In this document: one piece after another, positions 33,001-39,000 of the stretch
Layout: each line of letters opens with the position of its first letter
Position numbering within the stretch: the stretch's first letter is position 1
Source: Deltaproteobacteria bacterium
GTDB taxonomy: Bacteria > Desulfobacterota > WTBG01 > CAIYCZ01 > CAIRTM01
Reading direction: 5' to 3'
Assembly: GCA_024276465.1 (NCBI GenBank)
Contig: JAJRXD010000035.1
Coordinates: forward strand, 2,028-66,027
Length of the DNA stretch: 64,000 nt
Position numbers: made by a program

Positions 33001-36000
33001 TCCTGAATATATTTTCTTGGAGAAGTTTTGAGGATCCGGCCTTTTTCCCTGTAAATAAGCCCCTGTATCCTGCCAAGATCACTGCTGCCCCTGCTGAAGG
33101 AAAGCAGAATTTCCAGCAGCGTAATTTCCCCCTCGCCAATAACCCCGATATCAATATCTTCACACTCCTGCAGGGTTTCTTCCGGCAATGCAGTTATGTG
33201 ACACCCGCCAACTATTATTTTCATGCCTGGATCGGATTTTTTTATTTCTCTTGCAAGATCAAATGTATTGCATATTGCATTGGTCGTTGAGGAAATTCCT
33301 GCAATTCCGGGTTTCAGTCTGTTAATTTCCCTGACCGTAGCAGCAATATCCAGTCCCTGGGCAGGCGCATCAACTATTGTAACATTATAACCGTCTCTGC
33401 GCGCGCAGGCAGCAAGAATGCAAATCCCCATGGGCGGGGCTTCACTCCCCATCTTAGCAAAACTTCCGTAGCGTTCTTTTAAAGTTAATGGCGGGTTGAC
33501 AAGTACTAAATCAGTTTCAGGTTTCATATATTTTTACACGGGAATGAATGACATTGTTAAATTATAATTTTTCTTCACCTGTTAAACCCGGAATTTGCTT
33601 TCAGACATCTACTGCAGCATCTGGGTTAACAGCATCTCAGGGGATAAATACAGGGTGAGGATATCAGCCCGAAAACTTAGAGATGCTAAACTACGTCCTT
33701 AGCGCAAAGGAGCCCGTAAGTAGAGTAGGGACTGCCTTCATGAAGGGTAACATATTCAACCCTGAATCCTGTTTTCTCCAGGACACTTCTGAAATCCTCC
33801 CATTTTCGAAAATAAAACCGGTCACCCATATAAAGACAGTTGTCCACAATTCTGGTCAGAAAAAATTTATAATAGGGCTCAAAGCACACATCTTTAATAA
33901 ATAAAACGCCTCCCCTGTCCAGCCCTGAATAACAATACCTGAGCAAATCCTCCTGCTGCTCAAACGAGTTCATGTGATGAAGCACATCAATGATGGTTAT
34001 TGCCTGACAGGAATTCAGATCATAGTCTCTTACGTCCATTGTAATAAACTCAGTATTTTTCAATCCCCGAAATGCATATTTTGTTTTTCTTGGGTTTTTC
34101 TCCACACCAGTTATCATTCTATCCCTGGAGCGTATTGCAAGAAAATTTGCAAAAAGACCATAACCAGATCCTATATCAACAATTTTTCCTTTTTCAGGAA
34201 TACACTGCTCGATTAAATCAAACCGGTTAAACCATAACCGAATTCTGTTAAAGGCAGTTACGTAAAAGCCTTTCCATTGCCAGGGGTAAAGAGAGATAAT
34301 ATCACTCATTTCCCTTGCCATTTTAAAATAGTTTGGAAGCATAATGATCTAAAAGTAACAGACTGCAAAATATGAGATGATCACAGCTTGATTGTCAATT
34401 ATAATGTCAAAACCCAAATGGATTAACGTCAAAGTCCAAAATCCAAATGTCAAATGAAGTTCAAAAAAGAAAATGTCAAAAAAATCTGAATTAATTCCAT
34501 GATTTTATTTTTTGTCATTGCTTTTAACTTTGAGTTTTTTAATTTGACATTTCTCTTGTCCCTTTGTCCCTCTCTGTCCCTTTGTCCCTCTGTGCCTCTG
34601 TGCCTCTGTGCCTCTGTGCCTCTGTGCCTCTGTGCCTCTGTGCCTCTGTGCCTCTGTGCCTCTGTCCCTCTGTGCCTCTGTGCCTTTTACTTTCACCCTG
34701 CCCTTCCAATGGGCTTCAGCTTTTTTAAATTCACTTTGAGAAATATCTTCCTGTTGATCCTCTTCAGGCGCTTCTTTATAACCGCTTCCGGCACATGATT
34801 GTCCATCTTTGAAGCTGGTGTACCAGGCCTGTCAGAATACGCAAATGCCTGTACCACATTAAAACTCACCTCATCCAGCACCCTCATGCAGTCTTCAAAA
34901 TCTTCTTCAGTCTCTCCGGGAAACCCTACTATAAACTGGTTCCATATCTTAAGCGACGGCATCTCTGCCCTCAGATCATTTATGCATTTGATGTAGTCCT
35001 CCACCTTATAGGGTCTCCTCATCGCCTTCAATACCCGGTTGCTGCCTGACTGAATCGGCGAAAATATTACATCAATTTTTTCTGTGCTGAACACTTTTTT
35101 AAAATAATCAAAATATTTTATCAGCCAGTTGGGCTCAAGATGATATATGTTCAGCTTGTAGTCACCCTCTGTCTCTAAAATTTTACCTATAAGCGCAGGC
35201 AGGTCTGTTCCGATATCCTGTCCGTAAGCTCCCGTGTCATCTGCCGTGAGGATAAACCTCTTGTACCCTGCTTCAATTCCCTTCCTGAAATCCTCCACTA
35301 CCTCCTCTACCGGAACACTCGCAAGTCCTCCCTTGGCTCTCTTTATGGCGCAGTAAGCACAGTTGCCCAGGCAACCCTCCCCTAACACTAAAAAATATGA
35401 GTCCTGATCCCCTGTCAGTTCTCCAATCTCGAAATTCGGCAATATGTGTTTTCCATATCTGCCTGCCATGCTTTTCAGCTTCGAAACCTTGTGTACCAGC
35501 TTCCTGTGGGGCATCTGTGTAATATCTTCATCAGAAATCGTATGCTGGTCCTTCCACGCTATATCCTTGTCCGATCCAATTACCTCCTTAATTTTGTCCC
35601 TTTGCTTTGGGCCGAATGATATCCCGTCGAAAACACTTTTCATCCTGTCTTTGTTTATATTCGGCAGGCATCCTGTCACTACCAGCTGGGCATTTTTGTA
35701 CTTCTTCAGATCCTCTATGTCAGCTATTGAACTGTCTTCATGCTCCTTGTCATAGGCACAGGTGTTTGCTAATATGATATCAGCCTCTGCAGGGTCCTGA
35801 ACAACCTCCCACCCGTTCTCCTTAAAATAGTTTCTGAATGACTTTCCGTCCAGAAGGTTATCAATACATCCGTTGGACCTGACATACACTTTTTTCATAT
35901 CTGTTATCCCTTCAAAAACTATTTGTTGATAAAATCGAAAAAAGTTAAAATCCCATGGCAAAGTAAAAAGCTTCAAATTCAAGGCGCGCAAATCCTCCAG

Positions 36001-39000
36001 GATGAGGCGTACTTTCTGTACACCGAAATGACGAAGGATGCAGCGCAACACCGTCCCGCCTGATGGGATTTACAAAGCCATTATTGTTGAAATTTTCTTC
36101 ATGGTTGAGTATGTTAACATCAGTAACACAGTCATTTTAAACAGGTTTTTTAAACTGTTATTAATTATTATTGATGGCTTCGGCCATTTTACAGAACAAC
36201 TTTAGTTAAGCACCCGCTAAAAAAAAAGCATAACATTCGAGGCTTATCAGGTCATCAAACAGTAAAAACAATCGGTAAAAAAGTAAAATATTCCCCTTTG
36301 GTTTTCTGTTTTATAAGAATATCAGAAATTATAATATAAATTCAATAAATAATAATAATTCCTTTAACCCTGGCCTGTTGACCCTGTTTTCCCCTTGACA
36401 CAAAAAGTCCATTCAAATAAACTGCAAACCAGACCAAGCTGTTTATTTTAAGGTTACAAATTTTCAGAGGAGGTATTATGGATACACTTGAACTGTTCAA
36501 AAAGAAATTTGAAACATACAGGCAGATTCTTGATGAATCAGGGGAACAAAAGGCATGGGACACCCTGTTTGAGGGCTACCCTGAGAGGCAGAGAAAAAAC
36601 ATGGGCATGCTGATAAATAATACCACACTTGCCCAGGGCTTTACAAAAGGAATCCCGCTTTACAAAAAAATGGGCATGGAGATGGAGGTTGTTGATATAT
36701 CAACAGATAAAATAGATGCTGCACTTGAAATCCAGAGAACATGTCCTGCACTGTCTTTATGCAAAGAGTATGGTTTTGAAAAACCATGCCATGTCATATG
36801 TGAGATGGACGTGGCAGCAACAAAAGCTGCTTTCGAAGAGATGAAGGGCGGTATCCTGACAAGAATGGCAGATGGTGACTGTGTCTGTTTGTTTAAATAT
36901 GAAAGGCCGAAAAAGTAGCCCTATCTCAGGTCAGGGAGTGGCTGAAAGTAAAGCGCAACACATTAAACAGCCTTTTTAAAGCAGTCAACCATGATGAAGC
37001 CGTAAAAAGTAAAAATTCGATGGCAAAGTAAAAAGCTTCAAATTCAAGGCGCGCAAATCCTCCAGGAATGAGGCGTACTTACTGTATCCCGATTAATATC
37101 GGGAAAGGATGCCGCGCAACGCCGAAGTTGGACTTTTTACGAAGCCATCAACCATGTTTGTTGTATACCTCCCCGAATAAATCACACAGTTCACGAACAG
37201 CTCCATGACCACCCCGAGCCATGGTACGATAACGGGCTGATGATATGACATCAGGATGAGCATCCTGGACAATCACAGGGAACCCAACAACCTTTAAACA
37301 TGTCAAATCATTAACATCATTGCCCATAAAAGAGACCTGACTTAACAGGAGCCCTTTCTTTCTGCAAACTGATTCCAGTCTTTCAAGCTTATTGTTACAA
37401 CCCTGAATGCAATGAATCCCCAGCTTTCGGCTCCGTGCAGAAACAACAGGATTGGTTTCAGTTGATATGACAATGGTTTCAACTTCAACCTTGTGAAGTT
37501 TTTTCAGGCCAATACCATCACTTCGACAACACCTGACCGCTTCTGCCCCATCTTCAAAAACATAAACCATATTGTCAGTAAAAACACCATCGAAATCAAA
37601 AGCAATTAAACGTATCTGTTTAATGCAGTCCACAAGCGCAGGATCTCTTGTTAATAAATCAGAAAAATTCATGGGATTTTTTTATATTACGTCTCTGTTC
37701 TCTTCTACAGCCTGTTTTAATTCAAAGAGCCTCTCATTATCAAAATCTGTCAGGTTAACAGTAAAATCCGTAGCATTGCCAAGTTTAGTAATGAACTCCT
37801 CTTCATCCTGTATCCTGTCTCTGACCTGCTCAAACAGAGGAGTGCCGGGATATGGGGTGGCAAAAAAAGAGGGGCATTTTATGTCAAGTTCCCTTTTGAA
37901 ATCAATTGTTGCCTGAATTGTCTCTTTGGTTTCCCCCGGGTAACCAAAGATAAAAGTAGTGTTTGCGTAAATATTTGCTTTTCTGGTATTGATAATTGCC
38001 TGTTTTGCCTGCTCAACTGTTGCCTTTTTATTCATGGCATTGAGAATTTTCTGGCTTCCAGACTCAATTCCATAACCTATCCAGACACATCCAGCCTCGG
38101 ACATTCTTTGCAAAATCTCAGGTTCTGCATTTGTAATCCGGCCGTGACAACCCCATGTTACAGGAAGTCGCTTTTTTTCCAGCAGATCGCATAACTCAAG
38201 CAGCCTTTTTGTGTCAGCCATTGTATTGTCATCTACAAAACCTATAAAATCCACCCCGTACAGACTTACAAGCATTTCTACTTCTTCTACAACATTGCCG
38301 GCTGATCTCAGCCTATACTTTGAACGTCCAAAAAGATGATAACAGTAATGACAATTAAAAGGGCAGCCCCGTGCAGATATAACATTCATGGACCTGTTAA
38401 CAATAATATTACTCCTGAAGCCAGAGGAATTATGCACATCTCTGCCCCAGATTGGATTCTTGAGATATTTTTCTATTGGCAGCATGTCCCAGGCTGGGAA
38501 TGGCATGCTGTCAAGATCTTCAATGCTTTCCCGGCGAGGAGTTGAATAAAACCTGCCATTTTCCCTGAACCGAATCCCCATGACATTCTTCAAAGGGGAA
38601 TTATCCCTGACAGCCCTGCACAGGTCCAGCATGGTCAACTCCCCTTCACCAAGAACAGCTATATCAACCAATGTTTTTTTCAACAGAAGTTCAGACGATG
38701 ATGTTGCCAAACCTCCTCCGGAAATTATTAAAGATTCTGGATTAAGCTTTTTCAGACATGATATCAGCCAAACCTGAAAAGTATATGTTGTTATCAAGCC
38801 TGAGACACCAACAATGTCCCATCTCCTGTTTTTAAGTGCTGTTATAACCTCCTGCCTTGCTGGTCTCAGAGCATTAATATCATAGATTTCAACTTCAAAC
38901 CCTTCATTTCTAAGAAGATTCGCAATAATAGAAAGACCATACGGAATATTGTTGGGCGGGGCATTCAACCTGACAGGACAATTTATAAGAAGAATTTTCA

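Follow-up and report, generated by a model that had tools for sequence, protein, structure and literature searches.

A probable family of MITE-like hairpin elements at gene ends in a deltaproteobacterial contig and a Mu-like phage

Within the window (the whole 64-kb stretch of the deltaproteobacterial contig analysed here), two direct repeats lie on either side of a small plus-strand gene in an otherwise minus-strand operon, raising the question of whether they bound a mobile cassette carrying that gene, as the preliminary description had implied for a 930-bp segment, or are themselves the mobile units. We favor the second answer: the two repeats, A and B, and a third copy, E3, are probably non-autonomous transposable elements of a single MITE-like family, A and B being independent insertions beside a pre-existing gene. 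The family itself is undescribed; the kind of element, a MITE-like hairpin transposon, is well known.

36992-37150, minus strand: copy B, complete element, 159 nt including the terminal TGA...TCA (repeat and inverted-pair scan, folding)
35927-36083, minus strand: copy A, same family and orientation as B, 157 nt (repeat comparison with B)
35955-36014, unstranded: tract of copy A identical to 37020-37080 of B (48 + 13 nt, 1-nt indel), a putative gene-conversion tract
31875-32087, minus strand: element E3, 213 nt (inverted- and direct-repeat scan, 17-mer matches, fold)

The direct repeat is real: A and B share exact runs of 48 nt (35955-36002 and 37020-37067) and 13 nt (36002-36014 and 37068-37080), split by a 1-nt indel, and the resulting identical 61-nt cores are spaced 1065 bp apart. 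A 23-nt core occurs twice in the window, with 0 occurrences expected from shuffles. Homology is recognizable over 157-159 nt rather than the roughly 135 bp first assigned to the repeat, with about 70% identity in the flanks outside the identical tracts. Core and inner arm agree between A and B at 49 of 50 positions, as against 75 of 106 in the remainder (Fisher p = 2.7e-5), and the core of B is identical to that of the homologue L023 at only 22 of 32 positions. To judge from these sequences, the identical core most likely reflects later local gene conversion between copies 1 kb apart; the earlier suggestion of a recombining element survives to this extent, recombination between A and B being possible in principle and the likeliest cause of the identical core, but no rearrangement was observed. 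All three elements are shorter than 300 bp and non-coding; most frames of the copies hold stops, and the indels between A and B destroy any common frame.

Read 5' to 3' on the minus strand, A and B are each a complete imperfect palindrome of 157-159 bp. Copy B has a 5' arm, TGATGGCTTCGTAAAAAGTCC (37150-37130), an inner 3' arm, CTTTTTACTTTGCCAT (37035-37020), and an outer 3' arm, ACTTTTTACGGCTTCATCA (37010-36992); the 5' arm of A is degenerate, begins with TAA and is identical to the B arm at 13 of 20 positions. The termini of the family, about 20 nt long, read 5'-TGATGGCnTCGTAAAAAGTCC ... ACTTTTTACGnnnnCATCA-3' on the minus strand of the window, the ends being TGATGGC... and ...TTCATCA, and B and E3 each have TGATGrnnyCGTAAAAAGT at either end, whereas A has it in degenerate form. 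Exact matches to the 17-mer TTTTTACGAAGCCATCA lie at 32071-32087 and at 37134-37150, and 31875-31891 carries an inverted match with 3 mismatches (3 matches in the window vs 0.46 expected). This end motif had been placed right after stop codons: the TGA stops of the KdsC-like gene (37148-37150) and the B12-radical-SAM gene (32085-32087) indeed lie within it, but the inverted arms are not at stops. In predicted folds, the arms pair inside each copy and not A with B, and the hairpin of B reaches -53 kcal/mol (z about -3.2 to -3.8), folding equally well on either strand. The basal stem consists of a 6-bp stem, a 3x3 internal loop (an unpaired spacer) and a 9-bp stem. Compensatory changes preserve the hairpin across copies: pairing holds in 86.8% of cells, vs 36-48% when partners are slid, and both sides are altered in 11 of 29 pairs.

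E3 carries the same termini (about 20 nt) as A and B around an unrelated, self-complementary interior, and such shared termini around differing interiors speak for one family. E3 opens with the TGA that ends the B12-radical-SAM gene (32085-33527), and its predicted fold pairs its ends (-55 kcal/mol sense, -68 antisense). Each window copy is also flanked by short direct repeats of its own:

37148-37156, minus strand: B, upstream repeat CATGGTTGA; downstream copy at 36985-36993, 9/9 match
36081-36089, minus strand: A, upstream repeat CAACAATAA; downstream CAACAAATA at 35920-35928, 7/9 match
32085-32093, minus strand: E3, upstream repeat AAAAACTGA; downstream CAAAATTGA at 31868-31876, 7/9 match

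These three duplications share one register, in which 23 of 27 positions match, the top score of 1024 registers (mean 7.6, sd 3.0). The flanking match of the L023 copy is weaker (6/9) and copies in a Mu-like phage have no 6-nt duplication past the stop triplet (at most 3 nt), so that duplication length is not constant; varying duplication length is unusual for a DDE transposase. The outer flanks of the A/B pair differ (CAACAAATA vs CATGGTTGA), and the sequence beside the inner duplications continues directly into the flanks of the small gene. Because each copy has its own duplication, the outer flanks differ and the inner flanks are continuous, the small gene was present before A and B arrived, and the view that the repeats bracket a cargo segment has to be given up. 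A composite transposon or cassette bounded by A and B is rejected on the same basis: it needs a duplication at its outer ends only, and here either copy is flanked by a pair of its own.

36478-36918, plus strand: bystander gene between A and B, 146 aa, PF14196, ATC_hydrolase-like (Pfam match)
37148-37672, minus strand: KdsC/YrbI-family phosphatase gene; its stop is the first triplet of copy B
34693-35898, minus strand: MiaB/RimO-family methylthiotransferase gene, 29 nt downstream of copy A

The plus-strand gene is itself genuine, having a PF14196 match and 340 homologues (61-88% identity among the matches listed), which several sources name 'transcriptional regulator'. It converges on the KdsC-like gene, and its neighborhoods differ in L017-L020, L226 and L229. 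The promoter proposed for it is present as TTGACA-17-TAAACT at 36395-36423, but such sites are no commoner than in shuffles (13 found, 12 expected). The KdsC-like protein is full length against TIGR01670 (residues 20-168 on profile positions 1-150 of 154). Orthologues of the MiaB-like protein have 400-406 aa and align with the 401-aa version starting at 35898, confirming that the N-terminal extension of the ORF at 34693-36051 is read-through of copy A.

A search for the repeat beyond the locus found that the family is not confined to the window: about 8 copies are known overall (window and other genomes), some of them in unrelated DNA, namely two metagenome contigs and the tail operon of a Mu-like phage. 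Full homologues occur in L023 and L024 (48-50% G+C) and twice in L022, a Mu-like phage tail module (58% G+C), and L020 holds partial copies. The 5' arm of B is identical to that of L023 at 20/20 positions and to that of the second phage copy, L022b, at 19/20; the L022b copy has 41% G+C within a phage of 58% G+C. Both phage copies follow sheath and tube genes and sit among sheath, tube and chaperone genes. Empty sites exist in relatives: L121 is filled at two sites, the phage relatives L122 and L123 (sheath protein identity 89% and 81%) are empty at both, and the L020 element is absent from L229. In every comparison, the upstream protein has the same C-terminus whether the site is filled or empty. 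Against the MITE-like reading, relatives of the window organism whose proteins are about 80% identical (L226 and about 150 kb in L006-L016) contained no element copy. No empty site was found for the window copies. Small hairpins lie right beside several of the target sites, among them the site that follows the sheath gene in L122 and that of the copy at 1368 in L020.

These elements are thus short and non-coding, with shared terminal inverted repeats, flanking duplications (in the window copies) and empty sites (for copies outside the window), as in MITEs, and the early impression of an insertion-prone element has held up. A Pfam scan of roughly half of the window's large ORFs detected no transposase or integrase domain; because no transposase with matching ends was found in it, we infer mobilization by a transposase from the anatomy of the elements. 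A transposase supplied in trans would bind the termini, and the sequence GGCTT(C/T)GT with a 9-bp duplication presumably resembles the ends of the IS903 group. Insertion would duplicate a short target (9 nt in window copies, less or none in phage copies) and would hit the boundary between last sense codon and stop codon exactly, with the TGA of the element terminating the upstream gene and leaving its protein unchanged. Copy B would have entered the stop codon of the KdsC-like gene, and copy A the leader of the MiaB-like gene. In a transcript shared with the upstream gene, the element would fold into a long hairpin where that coding region ends, and this may have a side effect at the RNA level.

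Stop-codon precision is the sole unusual feature of the family, the rest being mostly ordinary. Each of the three comparisons of a filled with an empty site puts the insertion precisely after the last sense codon and ahead of the former stop codon; the TGA with which the element begins serves as the new stop. The element start coincides with the in-frame stop of an upstream ORF in 6/8 copies, the triplet at the 5' junction is TGA in 7/8 and TAA in 1/8 (copy A, where no ORF terminates), and all eight copies are co-oriented with neighboring genes. The downstream start follows the 3' end of the element after 17 nt in L023; for copy A the distance is 29 nt. Co-orientation of every copy and an exact codon-boundary position are not expected from symmetric cut-and-paste, and need selection or a strand-specific mechanism.

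IS200/IS605-derived elements insert 3' of a fixed 4-5 nt target, make no duplication and have subterminal hairpins rather than terminal inverted repeats. It is conceivable, though we consider it doubtful, that the family is mobile without being a classical TIR/DDE MITE, and is moved by a strand- or site-specific enzyme: HUH/Y1 as in IS200/IS605-derived palindromic elements and REPINs, an IS110-type recombinase, or a YPAL/RU-2-like system using a stop-like triplet beside dyad symmetry. The uniform orientation would fit an IS200/IS605-derived palindromic element, and the exact position with its TGA or TAA junction, the phage copies lacking a clear duplication and a hairpin whose structure is better conserved than its sequence all argue in the same direction, as do the YPAL/RU-2 duplications of 3-26 bp beside dyad symmetry reported in PMC2229807. 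Yet all three copies in the window are flanked by clear 9-nt duplications in a fixed register, which HUH-type single-strand transposition does not make, the 5 nt preceding TGA vary with no conserved tetra- or pentanucleotide, and no candidate enzyme gene was seen; an IS200/IS605-derived palindromic element is rejected on the first two of these grounds. A bolder version, which we likewise think unlikely, is a mobile element that targets stop codons, inserting in one orientation at the last-codon/stop boundary, with its own UGA overlapping an AUG (UGAUG, then a 3-codon mini-ORF) and a fold joining upstream stop and downstream start. Such an element would use a novel targeting mechanism or a termination-coupled RNA function for life inside tightly coupled operons, phage tail modules included.

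It is very unlikely that the elements are instead functional structured RNAs at gene 3' ends or between operon genes (mRNA stabilizers, processing sites or translational-coupling bridges), spread by selection with mobility secondary or absent. Their orientation with transcription, the start at a stop codon in most copies and the compensatory changes would suit such a role; the paired ends would draw the upstream stop near the downstream start, and the products of the sheath and tube genes preceding the phage copies are needed in high copy number. But presence varies among close relatives with otherwise identical gene order, flanking duplications exist, the interior of E3 is different, and the fold has no consistent strand preference (equal for B, better antisense for E3). 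Rfam 15 gave 0 matches at gathering score across the window and none at E <= 5 over the elements in 31500-37500, and most copies lie at gene 3' ends, so that a reiterated cis-regulatory RNA or operator, as once suggested, is not supported. Nor do the elements look like intrinsic terminators, in which a G+C-rich hairpin runs straight into a U-tract: a scan for such sites listed none within A, B or E3 and detected no terminator-like U-tract in them, its nearest hit (minus strand, 36936-36919) being downstream of B.

REP/BIME sequences are 20-40 nt, G+C-rich and very abundant, without target duplication, and REPINs are mobilized by RAYT transposases; REP hairpins can stabilize upstream mRNA, and doublets with inverted arms are possible. 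Like them, the elements here are extragenic palindromes at gene 3' ends inside operons, but their arms are A+T-rich, their units are 155-215 nt, duplications are present and no RAYT gene was seen; the REP family does not fit either. Integron attC sites have R'' RYYYAAC and R' GTTRRRY core sites and belong to promoterless cassettes arrayed by intI without target duplication. The window elements resemble them in length, as imperfect palindromes that begin close to the preceding gene's stop codon or right at it, with conserved ends, a variable self-complementary center and a basal stem broken by an unpaired spacer; attC sites are nevertheless rejected, target duplications being present, copies lying between phage tail genes and not in cassette arrays, and no integron integrase being seen in the ORFs scanned. 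It is highly improbable that A and B delimit a mobile cassette as its recombination sites (attL/attR-like or attC-like): direct repeats with an identical core around a lone opposite-strand gene with a promoter-like site, whose homologues occupy varied neighborhoods, are what such a cassette would offer, but against it stand the separate duplications and differing outer flanks, arms pairing within copies, the lack of RYYYAAC and GTTRRRY at both ends on either strand, the occurrence of the same element among essential phage tail genes, where relatives have empty sites, and the lack of an integrase domain in the Pfam scan.

The MITE-like reading has closer parallels among Correia/NEMIS (Neisseria), ERIC/IRU (enterobacteria), RUP (pneumococcus) and MITEAba12 (Acinetobacter), which share the 100-220 bp size, non-coding content, inverted termini and target duplication; MITEAba12 is 113 bp and has the same 9-bp duplications (PMC6382973). 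PMC2229807 describes bacterial MITEs as intergenic within transcription units, giving long-hairpin transcripts, with empty and filled sites in relatives, all as here. There is no sequence similarity to any of the four, and the termini here are not TA-flanked. Unlike those MITEs, this family lies exactly at the last-codon/stop-codon boundary, supplies the TGA itself, is co-oriented with genes in all copies seen and spans hosts of 40-58% G+C and a phage. YPAL/RU-2 (Yersinia palindromic sequences, 168 bp) is alike in length, long hairpin and lack of TA termini, and in both families duplication length varies (here 9 nt in window copies, at most 3 nt in phage copies); its targets lie next to dyad symmetry, to which the small hairpins beside several sites here may be compared (PMC2229807). 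The sequences are unrelated, and stop codon targeting by YPAL is not reported in the part of PMC2229807 consulted.

For annotation of the locus, the small gene is no longer to be read as cargo of a repeat-bounded cassette, which removes a false lead, and the MiaB-like ORF owes its long N-terminal extension to an artefact, read-through of a repeat. More broadly, the analysis defines a previously uncatalogued small element, probably mobile, that is common to sediment-type bacteria of differing G+C and a Mu-like phage; it could serve as a practical marker of strain variation and, in a variable surface-glycan gene cluster, give rise to recombination. If the stop-boundary placement is true genome-wide, it would offer a clean system for studying how a DNA element comes to lie at stop codons, whether by finding them or by being filtered onto them, and for testing whether a 150-nt hairpin there shifts the expression ratio of neighboring operon genes.

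A possible further trace of the family lies between A and the small gene:

36172-36192, plus strand: possible relic or collapsed copy in opposite orientation, TGATGGCTTCG fused to GCCAT-TTTAC

By its sequence, this tract may be an outer element stem without its interior. It accounts for one of three occurrences of GATGGCNTCG in the window (0.19 expected), the remaining two being the 5' arms of B and E3, and the census of three copies and one such relic falls entirely inside 5.3 kb of the 64 kb.

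The direct repeats in this region are real: copies A and B share two exact runs, one of 48 nt (35955-36002 = 37020-37067) and one of 13 nt (36002-36014 = 37068-37080), which are parted by a 1-nt indel, and a 23-nt core that occurs twice in the window has no occurrence in shuffled sequence. There is homology where the preliminary description placed it, but the bounds were too short, as it reaches about 35927-36083 and 36992-37150. The terminal 17-mer is found exactly at 32071-32087 and 37134-37150 and, inverted and with three mismatches, at 31875-31891; the first and third of these sites are the termini of a third element, E3.

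Genes and elements of the region that carries the copies
37682-39001, minus strand: B12-binding radical SAM enzyme
37148-37672, minus strand: KdsC/YrbI-family phosphatase
about 36992-37150, minus strand: copy B (homology span)
36478-36918, plus strand: 146-aa PF14196 protein (the small gene)
about 35927-36083, minus strand: copy A (homology span)
34693-35898, minus strand: MiaB/RimO-family methylthiotransferase
33686-34342, minus strand: methyltransferase
32085-33527, minus strand: second B12-radical-SAM enzyme
31875-32087, minus strand: E3, with termini of about 20 nt common to A and B and an unrelated interior that is self-complementary too

The wider window is a cluster of surface-glycan type, with NeuB, cytidylyltransferases, glycosyltransferases, PMT-like transferases and many B12-radical-SAM enzymes. 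Copy B lies between the stop of the KdsC-like gene and a terminator-like hairpin (36936-36919, minus strand), copy A downstream of a promoter-like site (36161-36134, minus strand) and 29 nt before the MiaB-like start, and E3 between two co-directional genes; no promoter-like or terminator-like site was detected inside A, B or E3. Read on the minus strand, which is that of the flanking genes, copies of the A/B type have the following consensus, from which E3 differs in retaining the 5' arm and outer 3' arm and lacking the inner arm.

Consensus of A/B-type copies, minus strand
5' arm: TGATGGCnTCGTAAAAAGTCC
interior: variable, paired
inner 3' arm: CTTTTTACTTwGCCAT
outer 3' arm: ACTTTTTACGnnnnCATCA

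Copy B is an imperfect palindrome (36992-37019 is complementary to 37123-37150) whose whole length forms a hairpin on either strand, at about -53 kcal/mol with z near -3.2 to -3.8, and copy A has complementary stretches of its own, different from those of B. Because each copy is self-complementary, the arms pair inside one copy and not across copies. The structure is conserved: an alignment of five copies (A2) yields a consensus hairpin with a 6-bp outer stem, a 3x3 internal loop, a 9-bp stem running into further pairs and two inner helices, in which 86.8% of cells are paired, as against 36-48% with the partners slid, and 11 of 29 pairs have changed on both sides. Rfam holds no family matching the elements. 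A tally of G-U against C-A cells in the pairing table of the alignment (9 versus 4) weakly favours folding of the sense strand, but E3 folds better in antisense, and we therefore draw no conclusion about the strand. The 5' arm of every copy (e.g., window 37150-37136 and L022 2331-2345) reads TGATGGCnTCGTAA, so that an ATG sharing bases with the upstream stop (UGAUG motif) starts a three-codon mini-ORF, Met-Ala-Ser-stop, the sole variable base being the third position of the Ala codon. Other element arms, read inward, also retain ATG-N6-TAA; the pattern may be just a reflection of arm conservation.

An exact scan of genome and metagenome contigs for a 22-nt core returned only chance coding matches, in gut Christensenellales-type contigs, and blastn of copy B against plasmid and phage collections gave no match. 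A scan of viral contigs with the family's terminal motif recovered full copies in L023 and L024, where the element follows a 93-aa ORF in a B12-radical-SAM neighbourhood, and two copies in L022, a Mu-like tail module where the copies start at the stops of the tail sheath gene and the tail tube gene, respectively; three further such scans, with matches checked by nhmmer, added no new copy, the real ones being those of L022-L024. The contig L020, which encodes a 79%-identical homologue of the small protein, carries the 5' part of the element at 1368 and again at 2712, there overlapping the stop codon of the homologue gene. Host G+C content is 41% in the window, 48% in L023 and 58% in L022, and one phage copy (L022b) has 41% G+C within its 58% G+C phage; the 5' arm of copy B is identical to L023 at 20 of 20 positions and to L022b at 19 of 20.

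Empty counterparts of these sites exist. Two phages related to L022, L122 (sheath protein 89% identical) and L123 (81%), keep the gene order and lack both elements, their sheath genes ending ...ATC TAA or ...ATT TAG and their tube genes ...ATG TAA. Likewise L229, with a 146-aa protein that clusters with that of L020 at 90% identity, is empty and reads ...AAAAAA TAA CTTTTTT where the filled L020 reads ...AAAAAA TGA TAGCGTTGTAAAAAGTC... In all three empty/filled comparisons the boundary at the stop is exact, the C-terminus of the upstream protein is kept and the new stop is the element's own TGA; at the tube gene, the old TAA and its downstream sequence lie directly 3' of the element. In L121 (5199-5262, equal to L022 about 2479-2542), about 46 extra nt stand between the retained old stop after this element (TAAGGGACGGAC) and the chaperone start; they are missing from L122, with 8 nt from stop to start, and represent a second small indel at the tube-chaperone junction.

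In the window the position is the same: the KdsC-like gene ends in a TGA formed by bases 1-3 of copy B, and the radical-SAM gene at 32085 in a TGA formed by bases 1-3 of E3. Altogether, six of eight copies (B, E3, L020b, L022a, L022b and L023) start at the in-frame stop of an upstream ORF, and all eight are co-oriented with neighbouring genes. Intergenic DNA contains, on a rough estimate, about ten times as many T(G/A)A triplets as there are true stop codons, so chance alone does not explain the six copies at stops. Position and orientation could come from a preference for stop-like triplets as targets, together with purifying selection in compact operons, of which the tube-chaperone spacer of L122, only 8 nt long, is an instance; alternatively, the mechanism may be strand-specific, or the RNA hairpin may have an effect that depends on its orientation.

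Each copy in the window has 9 nt, ending in the 5' T(G/A)A, repeated directly after its 3' end. Summed over A, B and E3, this register matches at 23 of 27 positions and is the best of the 1024 registers tested (mean 7.6, sd 3.0). The duplication of L023 matches at only 6 of 9 positions and the phage copies have no 6-nt duplication, so that duplication length is not constant.

Flanking repeats of the window copies
B: upstream CATGGTTGA, downstream CATGGTTGA, 9/9
A: upstream CAACAATAA, downstream CAACAAATA, 7/9
E3: upstream AAAAACTGA, downstream CAAAATTGA, 7/9

These duplications, together with the empty sites for the copies of relatives, bear out the earlier proposal of an insertion-prone element, but not the idea that A and B bracket the intervening segment. 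A and B are flanked by separate duplications and by different outer sequences, which makes them independent insertions and not the ends of a composite or cassette; the pairing of arms inside each copy, and not across copies, speaks against a model of hybrid attL/attR sites, which was rejected. Removal of copy B restores ...CAT GGT TGA ctgcttt... (the empty KdsC-like stop site would read ...CATGGTTGACTGC...) and places the KdsC-like stop 66 nt from that of the convergent small gene, and removal of copy A joins the upstream region of the small gene to the MiaB-like leader; the small gene was thus present before both insertions. Identity between A and B is uneven, with 49 of 50 positions identical in the core and inner arm versus 75 of 106 elsewhere (Fisher p = 2.7e-5). 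The same core is identical in B and L023 at only 22 of 32 positions, and in mid-element A and B are about equally close to L023 (21/28 and 20/28), A aligning without gaps and B with a 5-column indel. From such comparisons of sequence we infer that the identical core is probably a gene-conversion tract between copies 1 kb apart; no product of A-B recombination was observed.

Most likely, A, B and E3 represent a new family of a known kind of element with the anatomy of a MITE, as argued by inverted termini common to different interiors, flanking duplications, empty sites and foreign base composition. The element would be moved as a non-autonomous transposon by an enzyme encoded elsewhere, a mobilisation that we only infer, since the moving enzyme was not found. 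Its ends (GGCTT(C/T)GT..., with a 9-bp duplication) may resemble those of the IS903 group of the IS5 family, or of IS1. REP/REPIN and IS200/IS605-type elements give no duplications, and identity with them was rejected because the window elements have them; integron attC sites have a similar overall plan, but the elements lack their RYYYAAC and GTTRRRY cores and carry target duplications. Among known kinds, the nearest are bacterial MITEs, namely Correia/NEMIS, ERIC, RUP and MITEAba12, of which MITEAba12 gives 9-bp duplications (PMC6382973) like the 9-nt ones of the window copies; also close is YPAL/RU-2, reported to be 168 bp long, with duplications of 3 to 26 bp and targets that adjoin dyad symmetry (PMC2229807). 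The family is ordinary in most respects, and what is unusual is gene-oriented insertion at a stop codon that leaves the upstream protein unchanged; the phrase 'stop codon' does not occur in a 2024 review of prokaryotic MITEs (PMC10969869).

Between A and the small gene, 36172-36192 (plus strand) reads TGATGGCTTCG-GCCAT-TTTAC, the first 11 nt of the 5' arm joined directly to the end of its pairing partner, running the opposite way to A and B; it may represent a copy that has collapsed or the footprint of an excision, and is followed at 36266-36290 by arm-like fragments (ATCGGTAAAAAAGTAAAA). All window copies and this possible relic lie within 31868-37156 (5.3 kb of 64 kb), sensitive HMM searches with the arms and the whole element having found nothing elsewhere in the window, which suggests that this part of a variable glycan cluster (31.87-37.16 kb) is permissive or hot; there is no compositional anomaly at 31-37 kb. 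Among relatives, the orthologous loci of the MiaB-like gene (L006-L016; protein identity 76-83%, or about 80%) and L226, a locus with a homologue of the small protein, carry no copy, and synteny is not conserved. Source names on homologues point to Deltaproteobacteria or Thermodesulfobacteriota; cluster names gave no firm taxonomy.

The small protein belongs to a widespread and strongly conserved family, unusually so for its size, with 340 homologues (61-88% identity among the 120 listed, P0121-P0240) under source labels that include Thermodesulfobacteriota, Chloroflexota and Schekmanbacteria, and the neighbours of its gene differ in each of the contigs examined. A stretch of about 50 nt on the upstream side of the gene is also conserved in another contig, L019 (78% identity). 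Source names for the protein are inconsistent (ArsR-type, 'transcriptional regulator', ATC hydrolase-like), and no NCBIfam model covers it. In relatives (L006, L008-L016) the MiaB-like gene, which in most of them follows prmC in a housekeeping neighbourhood (rho, rpmE, prfA), precedes a gene of about 144-153 aa without Pfam family; that the small gene is this partner, relocated, was rejected for lack of similarity.

In the window, the MiaB-like gene lies inside the glycan cluster and has an 8-bp tandem array in place of the partner of about 150 aa. This array (34572-34685), which closely follows the MiaB-like stop (34693-34695) and precedes the methyltransferase gene at 34342, comprises 14.2 perfect-looking units of CTCTGTGC, reads GCACAGAG on the coding strand and is preceded by degenerate GGGACAGA/GGGACAAA units; as an intergenic array with a unit length not divisible by 3, it has the look of a slippage-prone (phase-variable) tract within a surface-glycan cluster. 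Elsewhere in the window, a B12-binding radical SAM gene is split by one in-frame TAG (24917-24919, minus strand; ...ATA GTC TAG AGC GGG ATG...) into ORFs at 24326-24910 and 24917-25645 (minus strand), the upstream one with the B12 domain plus the first part of the radical SAM domain and the downstream one with the remainder, and is either a pseudogene or contains a recoded amber codon. At 23085-23591 and 23501-24220 (minus strand), the ORFs of a methyltransferase and a family-2 glycosyltransferase share about 90 nt, and the listed GTG start of the methyltransferase may be too far upstream.
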